Of a stretch of DNA of 52,019 nt, positions 728 to 29,026 are shown piece after piece. The notes below the pieces were generated by a model. That model was not told where the DNA came from, searched no databases, and was given only the letters and a program-made list of their open reading frames with translations. Source of the stretch: a virus. Lineage: Duplodnaviria > Heunggongvirae > Uroviricota > Caudoviricetes. The translations under genes were made by a program, and so were the position numbers. Positions within the stretch are counted from its first letter, which is position 1. Every line of letters begins with the position of its first letter. Where the stretch lies: IMG/VR virus record IMGVR_UViG_2724679140_000011, positions 1 through 52,019 of that record; one strand, given 5' to 3'.

Positions 728-752
728 AAAAAACCCGCCAGGCGGCGGGTTT
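728..752. terminator. GC-rich hairpin (cccgcc-aggc-ggcggg) flanked by A6 upstream and TTT downstream; possible bidirectional terminator
   Basis: Inverted repeat read directly; the A-run gives a T6 tail on the minus strand. Confidence 0.3.
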
Positions 753-1049
753 AAGCTGTGTGGCGAAGTTACCCCTCTTCACCAAGTATTCGGTAATAAA
801 ATAACTTGTGGTGTTCTCGTTTTTATGCCGATAAAATAAACGGTCCACTTTCAAATGGAGCGATTCATGATTTTTCTCAGAACTGAAAACGGCATCTAGA
901 AACTTGAAAACTGGGAGGAAATTATATCCAGACCAAACTTTGTCACCACTATAGACAAAGGAGTTCAACAACTTGAGGAGATAATTGGTTACTACAAATT
1001 TAAAGAAGAAATCCACTGTGGTTTAACTGGTTGCAACCAACCACATCAA

Positions 1050-1787
1050 ATGGGTTATATTGTAAAAACATCTAGTGGCATTGAAACCAACATCGGAAAT
1101 AAATGTGGTAAAAACGAATTTGGTGTGGAATTTGGTGAAAACGTTCTTAGTTTCAATAAATTTATGCAACTCGAAACCAATCGGGAAATTATTAGTACCG
1201 CAAAAAGTAAATGTGAAGCGTGGCAAAAAAATATTGAAACGATACGAAATATCAAACCCACAATAGATTATCTATCTTCTACCATCGAAAATAGTAAAAA
1301 TTCCAATTACTCCGGAAGACTTGGTGCTACAGAAATTCGTTTTTTGACCAAGAGCCAGATAGGCCTTGTAACCCTTTCTGAAGTGGAAACTGATAAGAAT
1401 ACCAAAACAATTCTGTTCGCAATGAATGAACACATGCGCGAGTCTGGAGAAGCAATAAGTGAATTCTACATAGGAAAAGTATCATTTAGTCATGTTCTTT
1501 TACCAGAAAACAATCTTCGTGATTTTTTTGTTGCGCTCAAAGAAGATCTAAAAAAAATTCAGTGTATTGATCTACAAACAGCCCCAAGCCCAGAAATTTC
1601 TAATGTTGCCAAAATTGCCAGTTCAATCGAAGAACGAATCAAGCGATTAAAAAAACTGAAACATGAAGCCAGTAAATTCCTAACTAAAAAAAATCTGCGT
1701 CCCATCGCAAACAAAATAAAATACTCATCGACAGCGGATGAACTTGAATTCCATAATTTCGAACGCTTTTTAAACGGGCTGAAATGA
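1050..1787 (+). CDS. hypothetical protein, 245 aa, AT-rich isolated gene
   Basis: Long ORF in AT-rich DNA, flanked by hairpin terminators; frame is open upstream to an in-frame TAG at 897-899. Confidence 0.55.
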   Translation: MGYIVKTSSGIETNIGNKCGKNEFGVEFGENVLSFNKFMQLETNREIISTAKSKCEAWQKNIETIRNIKPTIDYLSSTIENSKNSNYSGRLGATEIRFLTKSQIGLVTLSEVETDKNTKTILFAMNEHMRESGEAISEFYIGKVSFSHVLLPENNLRDFFVALKEDLKKIQCIDLQTAPSPEISNVAKIASSIEERIKRLKKLKHEASKFLTKKNLRPIANKIKYSSTADELEFHNFERFLNGLK

Positions 1788-1812
1788 TAAAAGCCCCGAA
1801 AGGGGCTTCTAT
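1788..1812. terminator. rho-independent terminator hairpin (agcccc-gaaa-ggggct)
   Basis: Perfect 6-bp stem with GAAA loop directly after the stop of 1050..1787; A/T runs on both sides. Confidence 0.45.
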
Positions 1813-1901
1813 CAAAATCATTTACGCATTATTCCGCATGCTCAAAAGAATACATGACAGATTAGGACAAAATCAAGTGCAATGTCGCAAAAAGCCTAAG
1901 T

Positions 1902-2732
1902 TTAGTTCACATCATCACCAAAACTTGTCACATTCTGAAAAGCAATATCGGCCTTACGCTCTTCCTGGTGACAAATGTCAACCAGAGAATCAAGAAACGG
2001 CTTCCAATTACGTGTCCATGTCCTGACATGTAGCTCGGGTATCCGCTTCAGTACAACTTTATATACTGTGGTAGACGGTACCGTGGAAAATCCATTTCCG
2101 CTGCAACGTTCGCAGATTTTAAACACTGGCACACCACGCTCGCTTGTGGCTTTGCGGTCCAGTACCTCTCCCTTTCCACCACAACGACACCTGGCACTTA
2201 TCACTCCCTTCCCTTTACATACATCGCAAACGACTGGTACAACTTCCGTTACCTCTGTCCATTTCTCCCAGTCTGACGGTCGAACAGCACGGGAGCGACT
2301 GGCCCAATATGGTGCTTTACCCCATGGGTATGAAACCTTACGAATGACCTGCTTACGGGGTGTTAGTCCGGTACCACTGCAACTATGGCATGTTACGCTG
2401 GTGGCCGCCGATCGGGAATACTCAGCAAAAGCAAACTGAGCCAGTACCAGCATACACCAGCCAAATTCACCACCAGCTGCTTTACGCACATTCTTCGGTG
2501 CAATTTTCATCGCGTGACGCGCCAGCGCCTGGACTGCCATCTGCTCATCAGTCTTGCTGATACCGGCCTTCCCGAAGAAGGCCGCCAGGCCAAACCGCTC
2601 ACGATTGCTGGTGGTACCAATAGCCGCCATAACATCGGTGCCTGTAAGACGTTCCGGAGAGGTTCCTTTCACATCGTCGCCGATATACATTCCCTGAGGA
2701 CTGAAGTATTTTAGCGATACCTCAAGCTTCAT
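1902..2732 (-). CDS. DnaJ-type zinc-finger protein with four CxxCxGxG repeats; possibly a phage late regulator (Q-like position)
   Basis: CHSCSGTG, CDVCKGKG, CRCGGKG, CERCSGNG in translation; last gene of the minus-strand early operon. Confidence 0.6.
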   Translation of the reverse strand: MKLEVSLKYFSPQGMYIGDDVKGTSPERLTGTDVMAAIGTTSNRERFGLAAFFGKAGISKTDEQMAVQALARHAMKIAPKNVRKAAGGEFGWCMLVLAQFAFAEYSRSAATSVTCHSCSGTGLTPRKQVIRKVSYPWGKAPYWASRSRAVRPSDWEKWTEVTEVVPVVCDVCKGKGVISARCRCGGKGEVLDRKATSERGVPVFKICERCSGNGFSTVPSTTVYKVVLKRIPELHVRTWTRNWKPFLDSLVDICHQEERKADIAFQNVTSFGDDVN

Positions 2733-3589
2733 TATTCACACTCCCCAACCAGATTAAGAATAACCGCCTCGCCATTGTCTTTCATATATTCGCCCTTTCC
2801 GCTTGCCAAAAACCAACGACACACCTCCACGGCTTCAGCCCGTGTCACCGGTTTGATGGTCATCAGCAATTTTTCAAGGTAGCGCTCGCGGTCATATACC
2901 GATTCGTGATGCTCAGAGTAACCATACTCATCGCCCTGTTCTTTAGTCGCAGTGTGGCGAACACTGTAGAGCCAGTCCCAGTAAACAAACTCACGAACTA
3001 CATCTGACAATGTATGAGGCTCTGGCAGTACATCACGATAACCATCAACATATGCACGACGCTGATCATCAATTTCATTCATACGGATACCGTCAATGCT
3101 GCCCGCTTTCTTCTCGGCTGCAGTCCAGCCCCAGAGATGATCGTCGATAAATTTCTGGGAAGACTTGATCACTCGCTCGGCTTCCACATCTTCGAGTGCT
3201 GCTTCATAGCTACCAAACATAGCCCTGACTGATGCTGCTTTTTTGATATTCTCCCTGGCGTTTCTGATTGCCTGTGCCGGGTTATCCATGCCGATGGTAC
3301 CGAAAGCAATCTGGAAAGGATCGCCACCATTCGCCAGCAGATAACGCGAATAGCGTTCCTGGGCCTCTTTTGGGGAAATTTTAATTTTCACCAGCGCGGC
3401 CTCAGCAGCATCCAGATGTGCGGGTTCGTTCAGACGGATAACCTCCAGCACCCAAAGATAAGCATCAGTCTGCTTATGCCCGGTGATTCTCCTCTGCTCG
3501 GGCAGGGGCTTGATGTTTGCGAGGGCGGAGCTGTACGCTTCCGTCGGGATGGTGAATAGTACTTTATGTTCGTTGTTATCAGTACGCAT
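2732..3589 (-). CDS. hypothetical phage protein, 285 aa
   Basis: Start overlaps the downstream gene and abuts the primase stop; operon context. Confidence 0.6.
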   Translation of the reverse strand: MRTDNNEHKVLFTIPTEAYSSALANIKPLPEQRRITGHKQTDAYLWVLEVIRLNEPAHLDAAEAALVKIKISPKEAQERYSRYLLANGGDPFQIAFGTIGMDNPAQAIRNARENIKKAASVRAMFGSYEAALEDVEAERVIKSSQKFIDDHLWGWTAAEKKAGSIDGIRMNEIDDQRRAYVDGYRDVLPEPHTLSDVVREFVYWDWLYSVRHTATKEQGDEYGYSEHHESVYDRERYLEKLLMTIKPVTRAEAVEVCRWFLASGKGEYMKDNGEAVILNLVGECE

Positions 3590-4557
3590 TACGCAGCCGC
3601 CTTTTTCTTATGGAAAACCAGCTCTCGAACCTGATCACCGTTCATGAGCATATTGTTGAAATCATCGTGATCCGGCCAGTACACGCTCACGCGCTGCAGG
3701 TCATTCTTCGCCATCAGATTGGCATGAGCACATTCGCAAGCCGCAGCCAGCCCGGTGGCGCTGTTCTCGTCACGGTCGGCAAAAATAATCAGGTGCAGAA
3801 CACCAGCTGGTACGCGGAACTTTTTCATAAAGCCGCTGTTAATGGTTGCCCAGGTGTTCACGTTATAAATCTGGTGCGCTGACAGCGCTGTTTCGATGCC
3901 TTCGGCGATACCCAGAGTGCTGGCGACAGGAAACATGCGGATAGCTACAGAACGAGCGTGATCCAGATAGTTATCTTCCTGCAGGGATTTGAGGCGCTTT
4001 GCACTGCTACCGATATCTGCTTTTTTATCACCATCAAGCAGAGTCTGGTGCAGATAGCACAACTCCCCTTTATCGTCCGTAGCAAGTGAATAAAGAGACT
4101 GGAACACACTCCCGTTGTGTCTCTGCCTGGCATTGAACCGGATCGCCTCAGCAGGAAGACTGAATATTCCACGAGAATTAAGATACGCTGCGCCGGATGT
4201 ACCACGCAGTGCCTCCAGTTTTGAAAACTTGCTCAATACCCGTTTGCGTAAGCTGGTGGCGCTGCTGGTTACCGGGATTTTAACCCGTTGGTAATCATTA
4301 CCGATCAGGCGGTCTATTTCGGTACAAATCTCGTTAAATGGCTTCGCCTGTGTCAGGGTGACAAGTTTCATACCATCGCCACTACCACATACACAGATCC
4401 ACGTTCCTGCACCGTCGCGGTCATCAATTCTGAACTTACCACGTGCACCGCATACCGGGCATTCACCCTTGAAGTGATTTTTTCCGGTTATCGGCGGCAA
4501 GCCGAAGTGCTCTAATATTTCAGGCCAACGGCCTTTCGCTGCATCTGCTGTTTTCAT
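3589..4557 (-). CDS. DNA primase, zinc-ribbon plus TOPRIM domain
   Basis: CPVCGARGKFRIDDRDGAGTWICVCGSGDG zinc ribbon; TOPRIM-like IAEGIETALS and IIFADRDENSATG; N-terminus resembles P4 alpha primase. Confidence 0.8.
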   Translation of the reverse strand: MKTADAAKGRWPEILEHFGLPPITGKNHFKGECPVCGARGKFRIDDRDGAGTWICVCGSGDGMKLVTLTQAKPFNEICTEIDRLIGNDYQRVKIPVTSSATSLRKRVLSKFSKLEALRGTSGAAYLNSRGIFSLPAEAIRFNARQRHNGSVFQSLYSLATDDKGELCYLHQTLLDGDKKADIGSSAKRLKSLQEDNYLDHARSVAIRMFPVASTLGIAEGIETALSAHQIYNVNTWATINSGFMKKFRVPAGVLHLIIFADRDENSATGLAAACECAHANLMAKNDLQRVSVYWPDHDDFNNMLMNGDQVRELVFHKKKAAA

Positions 4558-4558
4558 C

Positions 4559-6217
4559 TTACTGACTCAGACTGTTTATATTTTTCTGGAGTTGTTGCTT
4601 TGCCTGCATAATGCGCCAAGCCTCACTTCCTTCCGGTGGAACATACCGGCCACCAACAACCAGTGGCAGAGAAAGCACTTCGGATGAGTTTTTCGTCATC
4701 CTCCGTGTCCGTTCACGACCTTTAGCAAACCGGATCAGTTTGTGTCTGATGTAGTTACTTACCTCTGGGCTTATTTCCATCGGGAAACTGCTCAACCCAT
4801 CAGGCCATTCACCGAATTTCTCCCTGAAAGTGTGAGCACACCATCCATCACTGACTGGACGCCCCAGCGAAGCACGCTGGCGCTGATAAAATTTGATCTG
4901 ACTCCACCAGGACTGTTTCTCTGCCTTCGTCGACTGATGCTGATTTTTACCCAGCTTATTAAGTTTGCGGCTGGTGTCAGTATCAACGTCTTCACCTCGC
5001 AGCGGCTTGTGTCCACATTTCGGGCAAACATAGACGCCAGCTGGCTTCATGTAGTGGCATTGAGAGCATTCATGTGGCAGTTTTTCGGCCCGTTCCTCAG
5101 CTGCGCGGCGCGCGCTTTCCTCCATGCCGTCAGACTTACCGGGAAGATCGTCGTACTCGATTGAATCCGGATAACCCAGACGGTGCACGGTGCCGCTGTG
5201 ATCGAAGATAAGGCAGGACTCTTTACCCGGTGCGGTGCGCAGTCCACGCCCGAGAGCCTGTAACCAGCGAATTTCGCTTTTTGTTGGCCTGGCGTAGATG
5301 ATGCAACGAACGTCACTATCGAAGCCGGCCACCAGAACGCCCACACTAACAATGATTTTCGTTGCACCGGTTTCAAAGCGGTGAATGATGGTCTGGCGCT
5401 CATCTACCGGAGTGTCTGCGGTCATTACCTCAGCGTTAACACCTGCGAGGTTAAACTGGATTGTCAGGTAATTGGCGTGGGCTACGTTGACGCAGAAAGC
5501 GATGGTAGGTAGATCCCGACCATTCTCCAGCCAGTTCTGTACGATGTCGCCCACCAGCGTAGATCCGCACATGATTTCAGCCAGCTGTGTTTCGTTGTAA
5601 TCGCGGCCGTACTCAAGCGAAGATGTGGTTTTAACACCTTTCAGATCCGGCTTAGTTGGCGCGTAAAATTCGTATTTACTCAGATCGCCACGCTGGATTA
5701 ACTCGCCGATGGTGGTCGGCTTAATCAGTCGGTCATAGTATTTGCCCAGGAACGGAGAAAACGGAGTACCCGACAGGCCAATCACCTTTACGCCTTTGCC
5801 GCGCAGACATTCGATATCCTTCAGGATGCGTTTTTTACGCAGGTGCGCTTCGTCGATAATCAGCAGATCGATATTTTCAGGAAAAACACGACGAATAAGC
5901 GTGTCAGCGCTGGCAATCTGAATTTTCCGGTCCGGATCGTAGTTCGGGTGATCCGCCCAGATATAACCGATTTCATCTCCAGGTAAACCATACTGCACAA
6001 ACCGATTAGCCGTCTGACCAATCAGGATGGTGTACGGAACACAGAACAGAACGCGCATACCACGGCTGACAAAACCAGCAACTATGAAGGCTGCCAGACC
6101 CGTTTTACCGCTACCGGTTGGCGAGTACACCATGAAGGTGTCGTTTGCCTTCCAGTCACGGCGCAACATGTTTAGCGCACGCTCCTGTGCAAAATTCGGC
6201 GTGATTGTCAGCTGCAT
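4559..6217 (-). CDS. SF2 DEAD/DEAH-box helicase, phage replicative helicase
   Basis: Walker A SPTGSGKT, DEAH box IIDEAH, motif VI QALGRGLR, C-terminal CxxC...CxxC zinc ribbon. Confidence 0.8.
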   Translation of the reverse strand: MQLTITPNFAQERALNMLRRDWKANDTFMVYSPTGSGKTGLAAFIVAGFVSRGMRVLFCVPYTILIGQTANRFVQYGLPGDEIGYIWADHPNYDPDRKIQIASADTLIRRVFPENIDLLIIDEAHLRKKRILKDIECLRGKGVKVIGLSGTPFSPFLGKYYDRLIKPTTIGELIQRGDLSKYEFYAPTKPDLKGVKTTSSLEYGRDYNETQLAEIMCGSTLVGDIVQNWLENGRDLPTIAFCVNVAHANYLTIQFNLAGVNAEVMTADTPVDERQTIIHRFETGATKIIVSVGVLVAGFDSDVRCIIYARPTKSEIRWLQALGRGLRTAPGKESCLIFDHSGTVHRLGYPDSIEYDDLPGKSDGMEESARRAAEERAEKLPHECSQCHYMKPAGVYVCPKCGHKPLRGEDVDTDTSRKLNKLGKNQHQSTKAEKQSWWSQIKFYQRQRASLGRPVSDGWCAHTFREKFGEWPDGLSSFPMEISPEVSNYIRHKLIRFAKGRERTRRMTKNSSEVLSLPLVVGGRYVPPEGSEAWRIMQAKQQLQKNINSLSQ

Positions 6218-6328
6218 TGTGCTGCCCCCGCAGTGATGAGATAATAATTTTGTGATGTGGTTTTCATGGATTCCTCCTCACATGGCTGGCGGCCTCCCCA
6301 AAGGCTGCCAGCCCCCTTCCGAATCAAC

Positions 6329-6697
6329 TCACTTAAATTTCGTCGCACGAATAACGTCAATTCCGTTCTCGCTATATCGAAGAGGGTGCTTACCATCCCT
6401 GAGCAGGACAAAACCTGACATCCCCTCAGGTAGCTGAGCCAGCTTCACCAACGAACGGTTGCGGGGAGACTTCTTATCGACCTCAATGGCACACTGCTGG
6501 CCGTCTGATGATGTAACCAGGCAATCAATAAACCCTTTACGACCACCGCTAATGCTGATGCTGAAATTGCGTTGCAGGTGGTATCCCTGAGACTTGATTT
6601 TTTTCTGCATCACATAATCGAAAACAACTTTGTCATCGGAGCGAATGAATCGCTCTTCCATGAGAGTGATTAAATTTTGCTTCAGGTCTTCACTCAT
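6329..6697 (-). CDS. hypothetical protein, 122 aa
   Basis: ORF in early-right operon between Cro-like gene and helicase. Confidence 0.5.
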   Translation of the reverse strand: MSEDLKQNLITLMEERFIRSDDKVVFDYVMQKKIKSQGYHLQRNFSISISGGRKGFIDCLVTSSDGQQCAIEVDKKSPRNRSLVKLAQLPEGMSGFVLLRDGKHPLRYSENGIDVIRATKFK

Positions 6698-16143: not shown

Positions 16144-16401
16144 CCCTTGATGGTGATAACCGCGGTTATCTAAATAGTATGATATTACCTTACGGGTAAT
16201 TCTTCAACGATTGCTCTGAATTGAATAGTCTTGAAGTGCTATGAACAGCACAAAACCGTGCTAATCACCGCCCCAGTGGCGCCTAAATATTTCAAAATGT
16301 TGGACAGAATCAGGACGTTAGAGGTACTACGATATGCACGTAAAATGCACGTGAGGTATTTTAAATTAGAAAAATCATTAACATTCAATTGGTTAAGCAT
16401 T

Positions 16402-16437
16402 TTTCGGATACGGGTTCAACTCCCGCCAGCTCCACCA
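16402..16437 (+). repeat. tmRNA (ssrA) 3'-end fragment, attachment-site core copy
   Basis: ggttcaactcccgccagctccacca matches the E. coli ssrA 3' terminus as recalled; upstream flank is not ssrA. Confidence 0.75.
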
Positions 16438-16544
16438 AATAATGATCCGGATACGTCCGGTGAAGTACAGAAAGCCCGCATGGCACAAGCCCTGCGGGCT
16501 TTTTTGTGTTTGTCGTTGTCCGAGAACATCCGGCTAAATCCGAT

Positions 16545-16600
16545 GATTATTGGTATACGTTTCGGTATACGGTAGGATGTATACCTAAAAGCGTATACCA
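16545..16600. promoter_or_regulatory. GGTATAC repeat cluster (2 direct + 2 inverted) upstream of integrase; candidate arm-type sites/operator
   Basis: ttggtatacg...ggtatac...gtatacc...cgtataccaa read directly. Confidence 0.4.
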
Positions 16601-16621
16601 ATTCATGAAGGAGCGGCCACA

Positions 16622-17821
16622 GTGGCACGGACAACACGCCCCCTGACCAACACCGAAGTTCTGCGCGCGAAAGCGTTAGAGAAGGATCTAACGCTGCATG
16701 ATGGCGATGGGCTTTTCCTGATAGTGAAAACTAGCGGCAAGAAACTCTGGCGCTTTCGCTATCAACGCCCAGCAACAAAACAGCGGACTATGATGGGACT
16801 TGGTGCTTTTCCTGCCCTTTCTCTTGCTGATGCCCGAGGGTTAAGAGCAGATTACCTTGCCCTATTAGCCAACGGAATCGACCCGCAAATTCAAGCTGAA
16901 GTTGCAGAGGAACAGCAGCAAATCGCTCTGGACAGTATTTTTTCGACGGTCGCCGCTAACTGGTTCCAGCTCAAAAGCAAAAGCGTTACCCATGATTACG
17001 CTAAAGATATATGGCGTTCACTGGAAAAAGACGTATTCCCCACCATCGGGGAGATCCCTGTCCAGCAAATCAAAGCCCGAACACTGGTTGAAGCCCTTGA
17101 ACCGATCAAAGCTCGTGGGGCGCTGGAGACGGTGCGCCGGTTGGTGCAGCGTGTTAACGAGATAATGATTTATGCCGTAAATACTGGTCTTATTGATGCC
17201 AATCCAGCATCAGGCATTGGAATGGCCTTTGAGAAGCCAAAAAAACAAAATATGCCTACGTTGCGCCCAGAAGAATTGCCTATGCTGATGCGTTCTCTCG
17301 TCATGTCAAATTTGTCTGTTCCGACTCGCTGCCTCATTGAGTGGCAACTCCTGACTCTAGTTCGTCCTTCTGAGGCTTCCGGTGCTAGGTGGGCTGAGCT
17401 CGATCTCGATGCAAAGCTCTGGACTATCCCAGCTGAACGAATGAAGGCTAAGCGGGAACACATAGTCCCTCTATCTCCTCAGGCATTAGAGATTCTTGAT
17501 GTGATGAAGCTAATCAGTGCCCATCGTGAACATGTTTTCCCGAGTCGGAATGACCCAAAGCAACCAATGAATAGCCAGACGGCAAATGCTGCTTTAAAAA
17601 GGATTGGATTTGGTGGTAGATTGGTTGCTCATGGATTGCGTTCAATTGCCAGCACCGCATTAAATGAAGCGGGTTTTAATGCAGATGTAATTGAGGCTGC
17701 TCTTGCACATAGTGATAAAAATGAAGTGCGCAGAGCATATAATCGTTCAACTTACCTTGAGCAACGAATAGGACTTATGAATTGGTGGGGCCAAAAAGTG
17801 TACGAGCGCAATCAATATTAG
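16622..17821 (+). CDS. P4-type tyrosine integrase (CP4-57 IntA-like)
   Basis: N-terminus MARTTRPLT...DGDGLFLIVKTSGKKLWRFRY typical of P4/IntA-like integrases; adjacent to ssrA att copy. Confidence 0.9.
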   Translation: MARTTRPLTNTEVLRAKALEKDLTLHDGDGLFLIVKTSGKKLWRFRYQRPATKQRTMMGLGAFPALSLADARGLRADYLALLANGIDPQIQAEVAEEQQQIALDSIFSTVAANWFQLKSKSVTHDYAKDIWRSLEKDVFPTIGEIPVQQIKARTLVEALEPIKARGALETVRRLVQRVNEIMIYAVNTGLIDANPASGIGMAFEKPKKQNMPTLRPEELPMLMRSLVMSNLSVPTRCLIEWQLLTLVRPSEASGARWAELDLDAKLWTIPAERMKAKREHIVPLSPQALEILDVMKLISAHREHVFPSRNDPKQPMNSQTANAALKRIGFGGRLVAHGLRSIASTALNEAGFNADVIEAALAHSDKNEVRRAYNRSTYLEQRIGLMNWWGQKVYERNQY

Positions 17822-17850
17822 TTAACTTGTTATACATGGAGATATAGTTC

Positions 17851-18309
17851 ATGGAGAATAATCTAGATAATTTATGTTATGAATTCTTTAGAGAGTTTTC
17901 ACGTTATGAATATTGCCTTAAGGCATGTGGACTTCATCATAAAATAAAAGATGCTAAAGCGAACTGGGATGAGTATGCAAAGCAAGTTTCTGAAATCATA
18001 AATAACACAACTGATCCAGAGCTAATTGCTGCTATCACCTACTTTAAAGAACACCCACCCAAAAAACAAATCATAGAAGATGACTCTTTAGTTTGGGATG
18101 ATTCTTTACCACAAGAAAAAGATTTAGCAAAATTTCTTTTTTTGTTAATCCGCCGTGTAAGAAACAATCTTTTTCACGGAGGAAAATTTAACGGGAAATG
18201 GTTTGAACCTGAACGTAGTGAGGCGTTACTGCAACATGGCCTTGTTATTTTGAGGCATTGCGGCACAAGGCATAGTGAAGTAAGCAAAGCCTATTCTGGA
18301 ATAGCCTGA
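17851..18309 (+). CDS. hypothetical protein, 152 aa, AT-rich
   Basis: ORF in AT-rich cargo block, convergent with the helicase gene. Confidence 0.5.
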   Translation: MENNLDNLCYEFFREFSRYEYCLKACGLHHKIKDAKANWDEYAKQVSEIINNTTDPELIAAITYFKEHPPKKQIIEDDSLVWDDSLPQEKDLAKFLFLLIRRVRNNLFHGGKFNGKWFEPERSEALLQHGLVILRHCGTRHSEVSKAYSGIA

Positions 18310-18401
18310 GCGGTGTTATAAAAGAGAAGTTTTTGTTACTGGAAGAATGATAAAATTCAAAAACTTCTCTATTGATTGTTTAAAAAATCGTCTAAATAAG
18401 A

Positions 18402-20984
18402 CTATTGTACCCAAAAGTTACGAAATATATTATGTATTTCGTTTTGAACTAATTGTGGCAGTTCTTCCATGTCAACTTTATTGTCCTTAATCCAATTAAT
18501 GCATTCTTCCTCATCTAAACTATCATTAGGAATAAGCTCTGAAATCATTACAGCAGCAGTTCTTGAAAAGCCAAGCCCTATTAGTGAAATCTGAGTTTTT
18601 AAACTTACACCCAGTTCTAAATAAACACCGATATCTTCAACATCTTTTGCTAAGTCTGTGCGATCTATCGAAAGATAAAAGCTTTTTAATAAATCATTAT
18701 AACATCCTAAAAGCCTTGGAGCTTGATAGCGAGCGATCTCTTCAACATCCTTCATAACCCCTCGTATTAAAGTCGCTTCTTTGAAAACAATATTTTTCTT
18801 TTTGTTATATCTTATTCTATCCGAGATCAATCTTGCTAGGGGATAACCTTTCATCCACTTGGAAACTAACAAGGCCTGTACGTAAGCTCCTTTTGAATTA
18901 TAACCTAGCTTCTTACTCAGAGTATCACTAATTCTAGAGAATGCGGATACATATGAATCTAACGCATCATTACTACCAGGTTCAGAAAGCAGTAATCTCT
19001 CTACAGGTTTGTTTGTATCCCGCGAAAATCTATCCCAAAGGTTTTGCATTAAAAGCGGGCTTATACCAGGATGCCGCACAACCAATTCGTGTGGAAAAGT
19101 TAAAGAATCAAAAACATCAAATATTGCTTCATTTAAAACATCGATATTTTTTATATTGTACTTTTCCATGTAAGGATTATTATCCAAGCCATTATAAAAA
19201 TAAAATGATGAACATAAATAACTAAATAGACTCTGGAGATTAGGATTCCGCTCAGACATACCAAAATGATGCTCTGAAAAAATATAGGAAACCAACTTAT
19301 CCATGTCATGGGAAATAGCATCCGTGGCGCGAGTTATAAATATATTTTTTTTGGTTTTTGGAGGCTCTCCATTCCAAATTTTTTCATTGTCGCTATCGAT
19401 GCAGATGACATTACCTTGGAATTCTTTTCCCCAACGACCAGCTCTGCCAGCAAGATTCCAAAAATCCTCTTCTCGCATCGGGGTTGAATTACCCTTTTTA
19501 GGGCCTCTTATAAAAATATTTTTACAAGCCATGTTTACGCCCTCAACTAAAGTTGAGGTACAAATTAAAAAATCAATCTTACCTTTACTAAACAATCGTT
19601 CAATCTCGCCCTTTATTATTAAAGGCATGTTGCCATAATGAAAAGCGACTCTCTTTTTTAGAGTGCGATTTAATGCGAAATTTTTATGTATAATTGTCTC
19701 ACTAAGCTCAACGAGAGCTAAAATTTCTTCATCCTCAGTCTCATTTTCTATACTTGCAGATATTAGCTTGGAAGTAGATTCTGCTTCAGCGGCTCCATTT
19801 ACGTAAACTACGTTACCAGAAGCCCCCTTACCTAAACAAAGAGCTACAAAAGGCAATCTTTTACTTTCAGGAGATGGTGCATTTTCTAAAGAAAAGTTTC
19901 CTAACTCGCGTTTTTCACCGTTTGCAAAATAATACATCAACCAATCTTTGGTCTTGCGTGGTTTTTGTTCTACCCATATTAAATTTTGATTAACTGTAAC
20001 ATAGTCACTTTTTATAGTTCTTTTGTTTTTTAATATTGGAGCATCACTGAGCAATATTTCAGGATTTAAGGTGAAAGGACTTGCAAAGATAACTTTTGAA
20101 TCAGGGTTATTTAGACAAGTCAGTTCAATTACATGTTGAAGAATAACACCTCTTCCACCATCACCGATCTTGTGTGCTTCATCAACAACTAAGACGTCTA
20201 TCTTTGGAATTTGTGAGAAATGATTGTAGAATAAATTTAATCTTTCCTGTGTAAATATGAAGACATTAGATTTTTCGCTCTGGTATACATTACTCAATGG
20301 TAGTGTCTGAATATTAACTATATTTGTTAAATTAGGATCCAAACGTTTTTGCAACTCAGAATATACTTCTGAAATCAATGCCCTTGTTGGTACGATATAA
20401 ATAACTAAGCAATTCTTATTTCTTTTTACAAACTGCTCCACCCAAGATTCCAGGATAAATGATTTTCCTACAGAGGTAGGAGCAGAGACACTAACCCATG
20501 AGTTTTCTTGTACCGCATCCCAAAACTCTGATTGAAACCTATTAGCATAAATATGCTTATCAGCATCTATTTCAATTGTATATAGAATTTTTCTTTTAGT
20601 TAGTTCTAACTGAGCCTTTAAGGGTAATCTTTCTTCGAAATCAGGGTTAAGATACCCCCTATTTTCAGCAAGTTGTATTGCTGGATTATTAGATAATGAA
20701 TCAAGAATTAATGCAGCACTATCTTTTCTTGCTTCACTTTTTTCATTCAATAAGCAATACTGTGCAATCCTTAAGGCTGCATCTTGGCATTTCTCATCAC
20801 TTGAGAAAGCCAAAGAACTAGCACATGTTAAAAGATAGCCGACATCCTCAGAACTAATCTGTGGGATTACATCTGATTTTAACTCTGGAAATTGATCTTT
20901 TATCGAGTTAGCGACTAATGCCTGATATTTTCTTAAGAATCCTTGATTCTTAATCAACCACCCAGATAAATCTCGCAACGACAT
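18402..20984 (-). CDS. SF2 helicase, 860 aa (Hachiman HamB-like)
   Basis: Walker A APTSVGKS, DEAH box VVDEAH, motif VI LAGRAGRWG; start overlaps upstream gene stop. Confidence 0.8.
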   Translation of the reverse strand: MSLRDLSGWLIKNQGFLRKYQALVANSIKDQFPELKSDVIPQISSEDVGYLLTCASSLAFSSDEKCQDAALRIAQYCLLNEKSEARKDSAALILDSLSNNPAIQLAENRGYLNPDFEERLPLKAQLELTKRKILYTIEIDADKHIYANRFQSEFWDAVQENSWVSVSAPTSVGKSFILESWVEQFVKRNKNCLVIYIVPTRALISEVYSELQKRLDPNLTNIVNIQTLPLSNVYQSEKSNVFIFTQERLNLFYNHFSQIPKIDVLVVDEAHKIGDGGRGVILQHVIELTCLNNPDSKVIFASPFTLNPEILLSDAPILKNKRTIKSDYVTVNQNLIWVEQKPRKTKDWLMYYFANGEKRELGNFSLENAPSPESKRLPFVALCLGKGASGNVVYVNGAAEAESTSKLISASIENETEDEEILALVELSETIIHKNFALNRTLKKRVAFHYGNMPLIIKGEIERLFSKGKIDFLICTSTLVEGVNMACKNIFIRGPKKGNSTPMREEDFWNLAGRAGRWGKEFQGNVICIDSDNEKIWNGEPPKTKKNIFITRATDAISHDMDKLVSYIFSEHHFGMSERNPNLQSLFSYLCSSFYFYNGLDNNPYMEKYNIKNIDVLNEAIFDVFDSLTFPHELVVRHPGISPLLMQNLWDRFSRDTNKPVERLLLSEPGSNDALDSYVSAFSRISDTLSKKLGYNSKGAYVQALLVSKWMKGYPLARLISDRIRYNKKKNIVFKEATLIRGVMKDVEEIARYQAPRLLGCYNDLLKSFYLSIDRTDLAKDVEDIGVYLELGVSLKTQISLIGLGFSRTAAVMISELIPNDSLDEEECINWIKDNKVDMEELPQLVQNEIHNIFRNFWVQ

Positions 20985-20985
20985 T

Positions 20986-21927
20986 TCAACTCTCCAATGC
21001 TTTAATTAAACTAGCCCTAAATGCTTTTACTGAAGGAAAAGGAAGAATAAAAACATGCATAGCAAAGCGATCAAGTTTTTTATTAACTATACCACCTTGC
21101 ACACTAGTTGACCATTTCCCGACTTTAGTATTAATCAAAGCAACTAGTTCACTGATATCAATTGAACTGGGCCCTTGTGGATAATCTTTAAGATCAAACC
21201 CAACTAAGCATATTCCTCTGTATTCCAATTTATTAAAATCCGGGCTATCAGGATCTAAGAATCTTTTCAACGCTTGTTCTAGTTCTATATCATCAACATT
21301 TAAGTGCGACTCCAGCAACTGCATATCACGTGTCTCAGCGCCTTCTATTCCCATAGAACTTTGAAGTAATGGAGCTATACTATCCATACACTCAGAAATA
21401 CCTTTGCTCAGATTGGAATAGAGTTTAGACTCGCCCCAGTATAAACATAATTTTTTATTATCTTTATCTACGCCTATATGTATTCCATCTGCACCATGGT
21501 AATGCATTTGAGAACTCGTTTTCAGGCTCATTTTGCAAATAATTTGTGGAAATCTAAGGAATTGCTCTGCAAATAAAAAAAGAATAAATTCACCGCCTTC
21601 GCCACTATTTGCAAGCCTAGTAAATAATTTTTTTGCTTGATTTGCTAATTTTGTTATTTTCGCTGTTGATTGTGTTTCATTAAAATATTGCACTGCCTCA
21701 TTGATTTTTTTCCTTGGAATAGCATAATCAACTACTTTATCGTTCAAGAATTGGATTAACGCGTCTACCCGAGGACGTCCATTGCCATCAAGATTAAGGC
21801 AATGAAAATGACAAGTTGCATTTGTATTTTCAATCAATGAATTAACTTTAACTTCACTAAAATAACTATTTAGTGTTTGACCATCATCTCTAATCAGATT
21901 TTCAAGCGCGACATGCAGTGCATCCAT
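20986..21927 (-). CDS. putative PD-(D/E)xK-like nuclease partner, 313 aa (Hachiman HamA/DUF1837-like, tentative)
   Basis: Candidate D...ExK motif (GVDKD...WGESK); immediately upstream of and coupled to the helicase. Confidence 0.6.
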   Translation of the reverse strand: MDALHVALENLIRDDGQTLNSYFSEVKVNSLIENTNATCHFHCLNLDGNGRPRVDALIQFLNDKVVDYAIPRKKINEAVQYFNETQSTAKITKLANQAKKLFTRLANSGEGGEFILFLFAEQFLRFPQIICKMSLKTSSQMHYHGADGIHIGVDKDNKKLCLYWGESKLYSNLSKGISECMDSIAPLLQSSMGIEGAETRDMQLLESHLNVDDIELEQALKRFLDPDSPDFNKLEYRGICLVGFDLKDYPQGPSSIDISELVALINTKVGKWSTSVQGGIVNKKLDRFAMHVFILPFPSVKAFRASLIKALES

Positions 21928-22120
21928 GAGTAGGTCCTTGCATATTTTATTTTCCTCATCATTTGCAATATATACTTATTTCAATAGCTTGCAACATTTT
22001 TACTCGACAATGATACTTACACCACACTCGCTGCTTAAAATCATTGTTATCGCTTTAACGTGATAAACGATTCTTTCAATCAGGTACTCATTGAAAGTTA
22101 AAAGTTACTTTGACCATACA

Positions 22121-22156
22121 CAGCGTGCGCTGCCCCGCCCGCCTGCCCGCTTCGCT
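22121..22156. other. cos-like site (P2/P4-type cohesive end region)
   Basis: Reverse complement gggcaggcgggcggggcagcgcac resembles recalled P2/P4 cos GGCGAGGCGGGGAAAGCAC; lies between cargo and delta. Confidence 0.4.
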
Positions 22157-22304
22157 TAACAGACTGGTTTTCATGCACCCCGTAAATCGTCTCAGAAGCC
22201 ACCACACAAGGGCTTTCGCGTCAAAAATGGCGCATGAGACTCATGCGTTTTCATGCGCTATAGATATGCACTCATACGCCTTCAGGCCAGCCAGGGAAAA
22301 GGCG

Positions 22305-22330
22305 TAAAAAATCCCGGTACTGGACCGGGA
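22305..22330 (-). terminator. rho-independent terminator after the delta gene
   Basis: tcccggtactggaccggga hairpin followed by T6 on the minus strand. Confidence 0.5.
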
Positions 22331-22352
22331 CTACGTGGGCGTATTTTGCTAA

Positions 22353-22625
22353 TCAGACAGGAATTAGCTGACGGCTTGACAGCTTTGACGCGGAGCCATA
22401 GCGGTTGAGAGTTTGCTGTTGTTTTTCTGGCATTTGTTCTTTGTCTGATTCCTGTTCATTGCGCCAAGGCTTCATAATTATCGTATCCACGCTTTCCAGA
22501 GCGGTAAATGTGCAGGAACATTCCAGATTCTGGCACTGATACCATGAGCGTTTAACCGATGGAGCTTCATAGGCGCTGGTTCTGGCGTGAGCGACCGTCC
22601 CACATTCAGGACACTTCAGGGCCAT
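22353..22625 (-). CDS. Ogr/Delta-family zinc-finger late transcription activator
   Basis: MALKCPECG...HARTS...YQCQNLECSCTF matches the Ogr/Delta CxxC...CxxC pattern; perfect aaggagg SD before this ATG. Confidence 0.8.
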   Translation of the reverse strand: MALKCPECGTVAHARTSAYEAPSVKRSWYQCQNLECSCTFTALESVDTIIMKPWRNEQESDKEQMPEKQQQTLNRYGSASKLSSRQLIPV

Positions 22626-22626
22626 A

Positions 22627-23181
22627 TCAGTACCCTCCTTTTTCATTAAGTCGGTTAAGGCGGGCCAGGAAAACTTTATGTTGTGCCGGGGTGAAACTGG
22701 TTGAAGCATCAGCGTACATTGATGCATCCACCGTTAATCCGGTTTCGTCGATAATGCTCTTGTATGCTGCTGAAATTACCGGAGTACGCACTTCCGTTTG
22801 TCGGGCTACAGCGGTTCGTAATATTTTCATTGCCGCCTCAAGCCCGTATGGAGCGCAAAGAAAAGGAGCCAGTGCGTCAGTGAGTGCATCACCATGCTCG
22901 CTCATGAAGTTTTCCGTTGCGCTTGTAACACAACTCTCCAGCACAATCTGGTGAGCATAAAGACCATCCCGTGCAGCACAGTTAATCTGCCATTCGAGGA
23001 CAGCAAGACGCTCACGAAGCTCCTCAAGCTGGCTGGCATATGCTGCCGGTTTTTCTTCAGTATTCAGCAGAGCCGCCAGACGAAGCTGGTAGGTACTTTG
23101 CGTATTACGTAGTGTCAGCCAGCTTTTTATCGCCGAGCGGTAATCGTTGAGAGCTTCCTGAGTAATGGTTCCGGCATTCAT
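22627..23181 (-). CDS. psu: Psu-like polarity suppression / capsid decoration protein
   Basis: 184 aa; HG.AL..ALAP and C-terminal FTPAQ..F segments resemble P4 Psu as recalled; adjacent to delta. Confidence 0.6.
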   Translation of the reverse strand: MNAGTITQEALNDYRSAIKSWLTLRNTQSTYQLRLAALLNTEEKPAAYASQLEELRERLAVLEWQINCAARDGLYAHQIVLESCVTSATENFMSEHGDALTDALAPFLCAPYGLEAAMKILRTAVARQTEVRTPVISAAYKSIIDETGLTVDASMYADASTSFTPAQHKVFLARLNRLNEKGGY

Positions 23182-23963
23182 TTCTTCTCGCCCCCTTTAA
23201 CCATGTCACGCTGTTTAAGCATCCGTGAACGCGCTGCAGGGCTGGGGGATTGTCTGGCATCCTGGATGGCTTTATCGTCCGCATAAATGCTGATCCCCGG
23301 CAGGGTAATATCATCCGTTGAAGATACGTTACAGGACAGTACCGGAGTGGTGAGTTGCTCGCTGATAAATTGCTTCAGCACACTTTCGGGGTCGTTTACG
23401 GTATGAACTACACCGATAACAGCAGAAGCGCTTCGGCCCAGAGTCATTTTCAACAGTCCAAGGATCTGAATAAGTTTCTGGCCGTGTTCCTTCATAAACT
23501 CATTCCAGAGCCACACTGCATGAGTTTCAATCAGGCGATTATGTTCGCTGATGTAGTGGTTTGCAGCATCCGCAGTTTTCCAGGGCAGGAATTCATTTTC
23601 TGCCACCTGAGCTGCCAGCAAATCTTCGAACTCATCCAGTGTTTCGCGTCCGAGGGCGATTTCTGCCCGCAGTTTTTTCATGCGTGGTGTCATATTTCCC
23701 TGATTCTCACGAAACAGGTTTCGCCATTCATCATTAAGCGCCTGCGTTTCCGTTTTTGTATCTTCCTGACGTTTACGGATAGTTTCAATCATTGCAGCAG
23801 CTTCAGTTTGTTTTCGCCGTTCTTCCTGCCAGACAGCTTTTGCTGCCTTAACTTTTTCCACCGCTTCGCGAATTTTCGGCGGGAGGGAGGATGTAATGTT
23901 TGCATCAGAGATCTGGTTAACAGTAGTCATGAATGCTCCGGTAGTGTTTTGTTGTCGTGTCAA
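23178..23963 (-). CDS. Sid-like coiled-coil protein (size-determination scaffold), tentative
   Basis: 261 aa, charged coiled-coil-like central region; first gene of the sid/psu/delta-type operon. Confidence 0.4.
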   Translation of the reverse strand: MTRQQNTTGAFMTTVNQISDANITSSLPPKIREAVEKVKAAKAVWQEERRKQTEAAAMIETIRKRQEDTKTETQALNDEWRNLFRENQGNMTPRMKKLRAEIALGRETLDEFEDLLAAQVAENEFLPWKTADAANHYISEHNRLIETHAVWLWNEFMKEHGQKLIQILGLLKMTLGRSASAVIGVVHTVNDPESVLKQFISEQLTTPVLSCNVSSTDDITLPGISIYADDKAIQDARQSPSPAARSRMLKQRDMVKGGEKK

Positions 23964-24089
23964 TTGTGCCGATGCCCATACAAGCGCACTACCGAGGGGG
24001 ATTGTGTCAGTGACAGAACAATGACCTTGTTCTGGCTAGCCAGAGAAATGTGTCATGTCTGATCTTCAACTTTCCTTTAATAAATACTA

Positions 24090-25104: not shown

Positions 25105-25655
25105 TGATGCCTGAACGCATTAATCCCCATTTTTCTGGCTTGCATCCTGCAGTCATTTCCAGGTATAGTTTTTCCGCTGCCGCAAAATCGGCAGCCGGAA
25201 TTGGCGTTCCGCGAAACTCAATGGCGACACCAGACGCGCCAAGCGTCTTTTTTTTCGTCGAAGCTCTGGCACACCCATTTTCCAGGCTGTGGTGTTTATG
25301 CGTACACCGTGGTTCTTTCGAGATAATGGCAGTCCGGGCGGGGCAGCCTTCGGGCTGGCCGGTATCCATTGAGGCCGGTTACGCCAACCCCGTTCGGGCT
25401 GCCACCAGTGAAATTGGCGTTTCCGGTGGTAGCAATAACCGCTACTCAATGGAGGCTGCCATCATGGCTACAACCCTCACCCCGTTTTACCCGCAATATG
25501 TCTTTGTGCTTGCCGCAATCCGCCGTGCTGACACTCAACCCCGCATCTGTATGCTTCGCACCGTGGCCTGCGATGAGCGCTTTGCACGCCTTTCGCTGGT
25601 CCGTGATTATGTGCTCTCCCTTTCTGCACGGCTGCCTGCCGGGGAGGTGATGTGA
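25104..25655 (+). CDS. hypothetical protein (P4 early region; start uncertain)
   Basis: ORF in GC-rich region; several overlapping frames, weak call. Confidence 0.3.
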
Positions 25656-25879
25656 TGAATCACGCCGCAATTTCTTATGACGATATTGTCCGCCTCAAGC
25701 ATCTTCGTAACGTGGGGGAATTTGTCACCGGAATGGCTGTTCTTCAGGACTGCTATGAAAAACCTGCAGGTGCTCAATGTGAGCAACTGGTTTCCCTGAT
25801 TTATCTGATGACAGAACAGCTTGATGGCGTGGTACAGCGTTGCCAGGATGACCTGATGAACAAGGAGGTGGTGCAATGA
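25652..25879 (+). CDS. hypothetical small protein
   Basis: Start overlaps upstream stop. Confidence 0.35.
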
Positions 25880-26199
25880 AATCACGCACTCTTCCCCTCT
25901 CACTTCGGCTGGCGTTATATCGCCGCGCGGTTGCCTGCGCCTGGCTGAGTATCTGCCATCAGCACAACCGCCACCTGCAGCTCACTCTGGATGAAATTGA
26001 AACCGCCATTGCCCGTGAGCTTGAAGGTTTTTATCTGCGACAGCACGGGCAAACAAAAGGCATGGAAATCGCCTGCGCCCTGCTTTCAGACCTGATGGAA
26101 TCCGGTCCTCTAATGTCCTGCCCCGCACTCTCCCAGCTCGGAATAGCCGTAATGGATGAGTTATGCGTCCGTCACATTATAAAGCCGGTTTTACACTGA
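25876..26199 (+). CDS. hypothetical small protein
   Basis: Start overlaps upstream stop; precedes alpha. Confidence 0.35.
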
Positions 26200-28547
26200 G
26201 GGAGAACTGCATCATGTCAGGAATGAAAGTCAGTCAGGCCGTGAAGGCTGCCCGCGGTCACTGGGCGCGGATTTTGCCAGCGCTGGGTATGAACATACTG
26301 AAAAATCGCCATCAGCCTTGTCCGGTCTGCGCCGGTAAAGATCGTTTTCGCTTCGACGATCTGGAAGGACGTGGAACATGGTTCTGCAACCAGTGCGGGG
26401 CTGGGGACGGTTTAGCGCTTGTCAGCAAGGTACTGAATGTGGATATCAGTGAAGCAGCAGACAGGATACATGGACTGACACATAGTCTGTCTTCAGCCTC
26501 TTCTGGAGTCTGGACGTCAACCGCAGATACAGATGGCGGGAAACAGGCGGCAGCAGCACTTGCCGCGCGACTACTGCAAGCCTCGCGTGAATCTGCCGGA
26601 AATACTTATCTTACACATAAAGGTTTCCCGGAGCATATTTGCCATGAGCTGACTTCAGGTCATAAAACCGGTGGGGTGATGTTCCACCCCGGTGATTTGA
26701 TCGTCCCGCTCTATAACGCTGACGGGGAACTGGTGAATATTCAGCTTATCAGTGGCAATGGTAGCAAGTGTTTTCTTAAAGGAGGTCAGGTTAAGGAGGC
26801 CTATCATCTGATAGAAGGGGGCGGGAGTTCTGTAAGAAGGATGTGGATTGCGGAAGGTTACGCCACGGCGCTTACCATTCGTCATCTGACAGGAGAAGCC
26901 GTCATGGTGGCATTTTCGTCGGTCAACTTTCTTTCTCTGGCCAGCGTTGCCCATAACAAGTATCCGGGATATCAGTTAATTATTGCAGCGGACCGCGATC
27001 TGAATGGTTCAGGCCAGAACAGGGCTGAAACTGCTGCAAAAGCGTGTCAGTGTGACATTGTGCTGCCACCGGTTTTTGGTGACTGGAATGATGCGCTTAC
27101 CCAATACGGAGAGGAATCCACCCGGAAGGCAATTCTTGAGGCTTTGAAGCCACATAACGCCAGTCCTTTCGACACAATGAGTGAAGCAGAATTCACAGCG
27201 ATGAGTGTCAGCGAAAAAGCTCAGAGGGTTCGGGAGCATTACAGGGATGCACTGGCGGTTGATCCGAACGGGCAGCTTTTATCCCGCTACGAGTCTGGAG
27301 CGTGGAAAGTGATTTCTCAGTCAGATTTTGCCCGAGATGTCGCAGCCCTTTTCCAGCGCCTCGGTGCACCGTTTTCCTCAGGAAAAATTGCTTCACTGGT
27401 GGAAACATTAAAGTTAATTGTTCCGCAGCAGCAAAATCCGGCACGTCATCTGATCGGTTTTCGTAATGGCGTCCTCGATACGCGAACAGGGCTGTTTAGT
27501 CCGCACTGTAAAGAGAACTGGCTGCGTACCCTGTGTGAAGTCGATTTCACGCCACCGGTAGAGGGGGAAACGCTTGAAACTCATGCCCCGGCATTCTGGC
27601 GCTGGCTGGACCGGGCTGCCGGACACAAGCCAGAAAAACGCGACATTATTCTTGCGGCGTTATTTATGGTGCTGGCGAATCGCTATGACTGGCAGCTCTT
27701 TCTGGAAGTGACTGGCCCTGGTGGAAGTGGCAAAAGTATTCTGGCTGAAATTGCGACCATGCTTGCTGGAGAGGATAACGCCACCTCTGCGACCATTGAA
27801 ACGCTGGAGTCCCCGCGAGAACGTGCGGCTCTGATAGGTTTTTCTCTTATTCGCCTGCCTGATCAGGAGAAGTGGAGCGGCGACGGCGCCGGGCTTAAGG
27901 CTATAACTGGTGGCGATGCGGTATCGGTGGACCCCAAATATCAGAATGCTTATTCAACACATATTCCGGCGGTTATCCTGGCCGTAAATAATAATCCTAT
28001 GCGCTTCACTGATCGCAGTGGTGGTGTGTCCCGCAGGAGAGTTATTCTGCATTTTCCTGAGCAGATAGCACCGGAAGAACGCGATCCGCAGCTGAAAGAT
28101 AAAATTGCACGAGAACTGGCTGTGATTGTTCGCCAGCTCATGCAGCGTTTCAGCGATCCGATGAGCGCCAGAACATTGCTTCAGTCGCAGCAGAATTCTG
28201 ATGAGGCTCTCACCATCAAGCGTGATGCTGATCCAGCATTTGATTTTTGTGGCTATCTTGAGGCATTACCTGACACCAACGGCATGTTTATGGGGAACGC
28301 CAATATTGTCCCACGCCAGCCACGTACCTACCTTTACCATGCCTACCTCGTATACATGGAGGCTAATGGATATAAAAACACCCTGAGTCTTACGATGTTT
28401 GGCAAAGGGTTGCCAGTCATGCTGAAGGAGTACGGGCTACATTATGAGAAACGGCGAACTAATCAGGGAATGCAGACTAACCTCACTTTAAAAGAGGAAA
28501 GTAATGCAGACTGGCTACCCAAGTGCGATGAGCCAACAATCAAATAA
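26163..28547 (+). CDS. P4 alpha-like primase-helicase (zinc ribbon + TOPRIM + D5-type helicase); probable start 26214
   Basis: [53 protein letters not shown], Walker A GPGGSGKS. Confidence 0.85.
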
Positions 28548-28565
28548 TTACAACTAACCCGGCTG

Positions 28566-28593
28566 ATGCCGGGTTTTATTTTTGCTGGCACAA
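28566..28593 (+). terminator. rho-independent terminator after alpha
   Basis: cccggctgatgccggg hairpin followed by ttttattttt. Confidence 0.5.
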
Positions 28594-28607
28594 GAATGTA
28601 GAGTTAT

Positions 28608-28690
28608 CTGTTCACTCTTCACCGTACAGTTAACTTCTATTTCCTTGATTTTGAATGGTAAAAATCCAAAGTGAACAGTGTGAACAATTT
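28608..28690. repeat. second TGTTCAC/GTGAACA iteron cluster (crr-like, tentative)
   Basis: tgttcactcttcacc and gtgaacagtgtgaaca. Confidence 0.4.
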
Positions 28691-28764
28691 ATTGAAAAAA
28701 GAGTTTTTTTGAATATAGAAGACCTATTTAGCGTGATTTTTTTAAAGTTCAATAAGTATTGCAC

Positions 28765-28790
28765 CCCGCTATTGGTATACGCTTAGGTAT
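28765..28790. promoter_or_regulatory. GGTATAC direct repeats near right end of the P4-like element (candidate arm-type sites)
   Basis: ttggtatacgcttaggtatac, same 7-mer as at 16545-16600. Confidence 0.3.
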
Positions 28791-28846
28791 ACAAACAAAA
28801 ACAACTTAAATAAATAACCAATTAAAACATAGATATAACATACAAA

Positions 28847-28870
28847 TTCAGACTCCGCCAGCCCCAATCA
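28847..28870 (+). repeat. degenerate ssrA 3'-end-like sequence, candidate distal att remnant
   Basis: ttcagactccgccagccccaatca versus ttcaactcccgccagctccacca. Confidence 0.45.
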
Positions 28871-28995
28871 TGATTGGACGGTATAAGGACAACACCAATA
28901 AAAACAGGAAGTTAGCAGTCTCAGCAGGACACCGACCAGACGGTGAAGAGACATAAAAGGATACGCAAAGGAGCCGCGGCTCCTGGTGACATGAA

Positions 28996-29018
28996 AGCCC
29001 ACAGATGTGGGCTTTTTC
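28996..29018 (+). terminator. hairpin agcccacagatgtgggct followed by T5
   Basis: Read directly; just beyond the autotransporter 3' end. Confidence 0.4.
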
Positions 29019-29026
29019 GTTGATGG

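Follow-up and report, generated by a model that had tools for sequence, protein, structure and literature searches.

A nonsense mutation at codon 11 very probably inactivates an accessory gene of the PHROG 7003 family in a lambda-like Escherichia coli prophage

The window, that is, the whole 52,019-nt stretch of viral DNA analysed here, carries near its left end a gene that is very probably an ordinary nonsense pseudogene, in which a single G>T change disabled an accessory gene of a prophage. The open reading frame of 245 aa by which the gene is currently represented would be what is left of a 306-aa protein. What is new is a correction of the annotation together with a pointer to a nameless protein family; the pseudogene phenomenon and PHROG 7003 were already known. 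The coordinates of the features are collected in Table 1.

Table 1. Features of the gene and its surroundings, in window coordinates.
Feature	Position	Strand	Basis
G+C hairpin with a 9-bp stem (AACCCGCCG/CGGCGGGTT) and T6 on the minus strand	731..752	.	fold; recurrence
Candidate -10 hexamer TAAAAT of a putative own promoter	832..837	+	conserved upstream block by eye; not called by the consensus scan
Shine-Dalgarno GGAG, 6 nt 5' of ATG 867	857..860	+	identical in 6/6 aligned sequences
10-residue stub MIFLRTENGI, the sole part translated from the native start	867..896	+	translation
Complete gene, 306 codons plus stop, PHROG 7003 moron family	867..1787	+	orthologue CDS ends, profile match, dN/dS
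TAG, nonsense at codon 11, ancestral GAG (Glu)	897..899	+	alignment with orthologues
Motif H-C-G-L-T-G-C-N-Q-P-H, codons 50-60, putative metal ligands	1014..1046	+	homologue alignments
245-aa remnant ORF from Met62 of the real protein; RefSeq WP_237802166.1	1050..1787	+	ORF list, RefSeq
C-G, codons 80-81, last invariant Cys of the motif	1104..1109	+	homologue alignments
Span with four poly-A tracts (1225-1231, 1550-1557, 1649-1655, 1686-1693)	1225..1693	+	A-run count
Extended hairpin between the convergent moron gene and Q	1785..1814	.	fold
Late-gene antiterminator (Q-type), convergent with the moron gene	1902..2732	-	RefSeq 'antitermination protein' in all orthologous loci

Direct reading of the sequence placed the ATGs at 855-857, 867-869 and 1050-1052 and the TAG at 897-899 in one shared frame, which is free of stops from 900 as far as the TGA at 1785-1787. 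This agrees with the original prediction, which had described ATG 855, the TAG and the 245-aa ORF as lying in a common open frame. The program-made list of ORFs contained only the 245-aa ORF for this frame. With a GC content of 35% and a stop probability of 0.074 per codon, the chance of finding 50 stop-free codons 5' of ATG 1050 was about 0.02, so that an accidentally open frame was already unlikely.

Five orthologues from other E. coli lambdoid prophages, with a DNA identity of 79-99%, were then aligned across the TAG, which had been set beforehand as the test. All of them are annotated as intact CDSs of 921 nt and 306 aa, and in the RefSeq annotation the ends of all five correspond exactly to 867..1787 of the window. 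Opposite the TAG, three orthologues had GAG, and the other two had AAG and GAA. The site was spanned by each of the five, a stop at codon 11 was absent from every one, and none started at the position equivalent to 1050. Since the orthologues carry sense codons at this site, the TAG is a derived G>T transversion that converted GAG (Glu11) into a stop. The frame had originally been offered as a nonsense-interrupted gene, an upstream leader ORF or a coincidence; the intact 306-aa CDSs that run through the site favour the interrupted gene, and the other two options do not survive the conservation of the upstream codons and the invariant motif contained in them. The frame 3' of the TAG was fully intact and showed no second disabling mutation. 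Compared with the nearest intact orthologue there were just three synonymous and three non-synonymous differences, too few for a test of relaxed selection, and the nonsense mutation may be of recent origin.

The same alignment was informative about the start of the gene. Both the GGAG at 857-860 and ATG 867 were invariant among the window and the five orthologues. ATG 855, from which a translation of 310 aa had been proposed, was rejected as the start on two grounds: orthologue H12 has an in-frame TGA between the two ATGs, and homologues at 25-40% identity begin with MIF... at the ATG equivalent to 867, behind a Shine-Dalgarno of their own, and have no ATG 12 nt 5' of it. These comparisons place the native start at ATG 867 instead of 855 and reduce the conceptual protein from 310 to 306 aa. 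Ribosomes that initiate at ATG 867 would release a 10-residue peptide at the TAG of codon 11, and the sequence 867..1787 would represent a loss-of-function allele, namely a pseudogene of an accessory gene expressed in the lysogen.

The two parts of the gene were compared for their substitution patterns in pairs of orthologues by the Nei-Gojobori method (five pairwise comparisons, with dS from 0.24 to more than 1, about 1.1). The dN/dS was 0.10-0.12 in the upstream part (codons 1-61), 0.08-0.10 in the remainder (codons 62-306) and about 0.09 over the whole gene. These ratios indicate that codons 1-61 are coding and under purifying selection like the rest of the gene.

A remote homology search had also been suggested for the conceptual translation. 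Two intact orthologues, 99 and 78% identical to the conceptual product of the window, matched the profile of PHROG 7003 end to end, with E = 5.3e-111 and 9.7e-101, respectively (positions 1-306 of 309). A word-indexed search returned 103 relatives, all labelled hypothetical and nearly all of about 306 aa, from Escherichia, Salmonella, Enterobacter, Citrobacter, Pectobacterium, Leclercia, Serratia, Yersinia, and Providencia. The exhaustive profile search yielded 1003 clusters (50% identity) at E <= 0.001, and almost all of the members were stand-alone proteins of about 300 aa. In the phage collection, tblastn matched seven records, none of which was named phi80; the Pseudomonas and Burkholderia phages among them match in the N-terminal third only.

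In an alignment of 21 homologues with identities down to 22%, just 23 columns were invariant. They include H50, C51, C56, N57, Q58, P59, H60, C80, and G81, which were also found in an alignment of 18 N-domain sequences. Of the five invariant Cys/His residues, four (H50, C51, C56, and H60) are encoded 5' of Met62. The codons of the invariant motif are present in the DNA, but ribosomes that begin at ATG 867 do not get beyond codon 11, and an ORF that starts at Met62 retains C80 alone.

The 306-aa protein has a mass of 35 kDa and a GRAVY of -0.50, contains no transmembrane or hydrophobic segment and is predicted to be soluble. Its AlphaFold2 model was confident (pLDDT 92, pTM 0.76) and shows an N-domain rich in beta structure (about residues 1-85), followed by a C-terminal region that is long and helical. 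Pfam returned only sub-threshold noise for two orthologues and nothing for ten distant members, while NCBIfam gave no match for the intact orthologues. The profile search of PDB sequences found 0 matches at E <= 1, and Foldseek with the full model against the PDB gave a best E of 0.44, with generic helical proteins throughout and no informative neighbour. The family is large, under purifying selection and confidently folded, and it has no name, domain or structural relative.

WP_237802166.1, the 245-aa ORF, is annotated in RefSeq (PGAP) as an ordinary intact 'hypothetical protein' CDS. There was no purine-rich Shine-Dalgarno in the 25 nt 5' of ATG 1050 (aactggttgcaaccaaccacatcaa). The encoded sequence is without four of the five invariant Cys/His residues and keeps C80 only. 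The AlphaFold2 model puts Met62 in the middle of the N-domain, within strand E59-68, and not at a domain border; on these grounds the ORF is a remnant rather than a domain-sized product. Because it has no ribosome-binding site and has lost four of the five invariant Cys/His residues, the remnant is most likely not made in quantity and is probably non-functional. We regard the RefSeq entry as an annotation artefact which merits a flag as the pseudogene remnant of a 306-aa protein.

The spread of the allele was examined by megablast of the segment against 5426 complete E. coli genomes with a coverage cut-off of at least 80%. The gene was present in 15 genomes. Four mouse-derived strains among these (M8, IGC_EcoliInv_1.1, RSHH22, and SK6988) were 100% identical to the window over 700-1900, and the other 11, of which five were fetched for annotation, showed identities of 79-98.6%. 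Across the first 16.5 kb the four mouse strains were 99.7-99.9% identical to the window, a similarity that fits one prophage lineage and one mutational event. The exact 245-aa remnant protein is on record from 152 contigs (NCBI, JGI, ENA, and Logan assemblies). The identity in four independently sequenced genomes and the presence on these contigs indicate that the TAG is not a sequencing error. The frequency of the allele could simply mirror a much-sequenced lineage of mouse E. coli, and it also leaves room for a product that is tolerated or residually active.

Four other explanations were weighed, and together they hold only a small part of the probability. One is that the 245-aa ORF is a functional, N-terminally truncated protein made by internal initiation or re-initiation, which would consist of the helical C-terminal domain without the Cys/His domain. 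The listing of WP_237802166.1 by PGAP as a normal CDS, the lack of a second disabling mutation 3' of the TAG, the wide occurrence of the allele on 152 contigs, and the resemblance of the helical part from about residue 87 to a separate domain in the AlphaFold2 model all speak for it. Yet ATG 1050 is not preceded by a Shine-Dalgarno and sits 150 nt past the stop, a long distance for re-initiation; Met62 falls within strand E59-68, four of the five invariant Cys/His residues are missing, and of the 150 best family members in the exhaustive search the great majority align from profile position 1-20 and measure about 300 aa, with few that start later or are much shorter. We consider a functional truncated product improbable. 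Re-initiation at the non-canonical codons ATT 921 or ATA 924, shortly after the TAG and behind GGGAGG, seems unlikely from the sequence, as both are weak start codons at an unfavourable spacing. Slightly less probable again is a TAG that is leaky or suppressed, by an amber-suppressor tRNA of the host or by basal readthrough, which would make the allele a down-tuned version of a costly gene. The ORF is otherwise undamaged, many samples have kept the allele, and independent knock-outs in other lineages would fit a cost of full expression. The stop, however, is not conserved in any orthologue, and this also disposed of programmed readthrough or recoding, for which a conserved in-frame stop is the defining test. 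A tRNA scan found no tRNA gene in the 52-kb window and none is annotated in the fetched M8 stretch from the tail genes to the integrase, which argues against an amber suppressor borne by the phage DNA. Amber suppressors are rare among natural isolates of E. coli, and basal readthrough of UAG is about 1% or less.

The two remaining explanations are far weaker. A regulatory leader peptide encoded by 855/867..899, or a coincidence, with the real gene beginning at 1050, would account for a short ORF with a good Shine-Dalgarno directly 5' of a longer ORF in the same frame. But no orthologue has a stop there, the supposed leader is codons 1-10 of the protein, and strong purifying selection acts on the protein sequence encoded by 900-1049, which also includes the invariant motif. 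Refuted by the sense codons in the orthologues, the dN/dS and the motif, this explanation is very improbable. An error of sequencing or assembly at T897 is suggested by the fact that a single base separates the site from the nearest orthologue; it is contradicted by four identical complete genomes from different laboratories and the 152 contigs, which refute it, and by a position outside any homopolymer, and its probability is close to nil. A single nonsense mutation in an accessory gene of the prophage thus stays the best explanation of the whole.

The gene has also been broken elsewhere. Four runs of at least seven A residues (7-8 bases each) were counted in the window gene against 0.7 expected from its composition (P = 0.002). 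Two alleles of the same 90% cluster carry frameshifts in such tracts: P0254, which has 132 aa and is on 11 contigs, one of them a 5.41-Mb chromosome, at the first tract, whose run is lengthened by Q120K, and P0255, which has 260 aa and is on 6 contigs, one of them a 5.38-Mb chromosome, at the second. In phage phi467 (LN997803.1, 3001-3918 of the fetched stretch) the gene is annotated as two CDSs, owing to indels of -1 and +1 in the A-runs that correspond to 1225-1231 and 1686-1693, respectively; it is otherwise identical to H5 (WP_062860141.1), the intact allele of an Stx2f prophage. The paired, compensating indels in homopolymers suggest a sequencing error in LN997803.1. The poly-A frameshifts could represent recurrent inactivation, switching of the phase-variation type, or in part sequencing error in homopolymers.

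The GC content was 0.33-0.37 over 900-1950 and 0.49-0.55 over 1950-6500, which upholds the earlier description of the gene as AT-rich relative to the neighbouring phage genes. In every enterobacterial locus examined, the gene stands alone on the strand that does not carry the late genes, with the late antiterminator (Q-type or DUF1133) on one side and the late region on the other. The next feature differs between prophages and is a holin, tRNA genes, a DNA methyltransferase, or, in Stx2f prophages, stxA2f. The slot between antiterminator and holin and the opposite orientation were the same at 25-40% identity in phage vB_EcoS-611R1 and in a Serratia prophage. A homologue adjoins the immunity region in a Klebsiella and a Pseudomonas phage, and its neighbour in a metagenomic element is a small capsid-terminase-primase module. 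The distribution is patchy: the gene occurs in 15 of the 5426 genomes, 183 genomes carry part of the region, and thousands share the neighbouring phage genes. On account of the deviant composition, the flanking hairpins, the patchy distribution and the slot, the sequence 867..1787 fits a single-gene moron cassette of a lambda-like E. coli prophage. Late transcription from 3' of Q would have to cross the gene in antisense. In the Stx2f prophages (E. coli 2015C-4136CT1, stretch 1417-5005; phi467), it is the sole gene between Q and stxA2f and is antisense to the Q-dependent toxin transcript.

Hairpin terminators had been reported to bracket the ORF. Both hairpins exist, but the better U-tract is on the minus strand in relation to the gene, and the consensus terminator scan called neither. 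The promoter and terminator scan found no more sites than in shuffled sequences and none at the expected positions, and Rfam on 500-2200 gave four matches, all far below the gathering scores. For the hairpin at 1785-1814, z was -5.4 when the plus strand was folded and -5.8 for the minus strand; 0 of 200 shuffles were as stable. It is likely a bidirectional terminator. Read on the minus strand (1814-1785), it is followed by UUUUAUCAUUU, about 90 nt 3' of the stop codon of Q, and is a candidate for the tR'-type terminator of the late leader. As for the other hairpin, positions 728-785, which include 731-752, were 89-94% identical in many of the 183 matched E. coli genomes, most of which are without the moron gene. 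The hairpin 731-752 looks like a shared backbone element of the lambdoid late leader rather than a part of the moron, and is possibly a second terminator that Q-modified polymerase reads through.

Several further observations were made on the surrounding prophage. The antiterminator at 1902-2732 (minus strand) has 276 aa, which we take to be longer than lambda Q, and its residues 167-215 gave a weak local match to the cysteine-rich zinc-finger region of DnaJ (E = 1e-4), which would be consistent with a zinc domain of the CxxCxGxG type. On the minus strand at 272-526, an ORF of 84 aa contains DFFIGSGSA, which in our view resembles the AdoMet-binding motif of N6-adenine DNA methyltransferases. 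In the related prophages H11 and H12 this position is taken by a gene for a site-specific DNA methyltransferase or by a fragment of one, and the ORF is probably a remnant of that gene. The M8 prophage (NZ_CP019953.1) is largely complete by annotation, with head, tail, lysis, and replication genes, a repressor and an integrase. Its interval between the gene and the holin is about 3 kb longer than in the window, which is closer to IGC_EcoliInv_1.1 here; this interval (25500-31000 of the fetched stretch) contains an IS200/IS605 transposase, iraM, a short 'tolA' CDS, and YdfR and DUF1737 genes, both partial. Beyond about 16.5 kb of the window, the best of the matches listed was E. coli strain 190 with 100% identity; each of the four mouse strains has a second matching place and may carry this part too. 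Among the proteins annotated over about 16400-24000 are one with an integrase domain, one with a HamA C-terminal domain (a component of the Hachiman defence system) and a phage polarity suppression protein. This combination suggests that a P4-like satellite or a defence island adjoins the prophage.

Lysogens would express the intact 306-aa protein from their prophage, and its function would be an accessory one. Its likeliest role, which we propose tentatively, is the protection of the lysogen against other phages; the proposal draws only on position, orientation, composition and patchy distribution. A search with 5027 PADLOC models (PADLOC-DB v2) gave no convincing match to a defence family: one orthologue had a weak and partial match to the candidate family PDC-M69A (E = 0.0023), which covered 52 of the 113 positions of the profile, and the other orthologue matched 0 families. 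No description of the ORF was found in a full-text search of the literature on Stx2f, phi467, lambdoid morons, and antiterminator Q with defence. The more specific idea that the family is an unrecognised prophage immunity gene, with a Cys/His metal-binding sensor and a helical effector or oligomerisation domain, and that the TAG is the 'off' allele of a costly gene, is rather unlikely; the frameshift alleles that arose independently at poly-A tracts, and the excess of such tracts, lend it slightly more weight. If it were true, about 1000 clusters (50% identity) with no Pfam or structural relative would provide stand-alone protection of lysogens from the slot between Q and lysis, and the repeated inactivation, by the amber codon here and in poly-A tracts of at least two other E. 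coli lineages and phi467, would mean a fitness cost or on/off switching. The family occupies the same prophage slot as the Shiga toxin genes and is a reasonable candidate for a functional screen. The TAG knock-out in mouse commensal E. coli (M8 and its relatives) and the intact alleles with 98.6% identity offer a ready-made isogenic comparison.

Compared with known systems, the window DNA encodes the same protein as PHROG 7003 apart from the TAG at codon 11; the function of this PHROG is unassigned, so that membership says nothing about the mechanism. The case resembles the ordinary decay of prophage genes in that a single disabling mutation struck a non-essential accessory gene and other damage is present in the M8 interval. 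It differs in that the prophage is otherwise largely complete and the same gene was independently broken at poly-A tracts elsewhere. The temperate-phage loci of BstA (PMC8585504) and Tai (PMC11364771) are alike in kind only, as stand-alone morons with a patchy distribution. [quoted passage not shown] The closest likeness is to the lambdoid morons, such as bor and lom of lambda, gp15 of HK97 and stx in the interval between Q and S, which are likewise single-gene, AT-rich units with hairpins and a patchy distribution, whereas the characterised moron products have no relationship in sequence or fold to the 306-aa protein, and an own promoter is putative here. Stx shares the interval between Q and lysis, and in Stx2f prophages the gene lies directly between Q and stxA2f; stx, however, is co-oriented with the late operon, while the moron gene is oriented against it.
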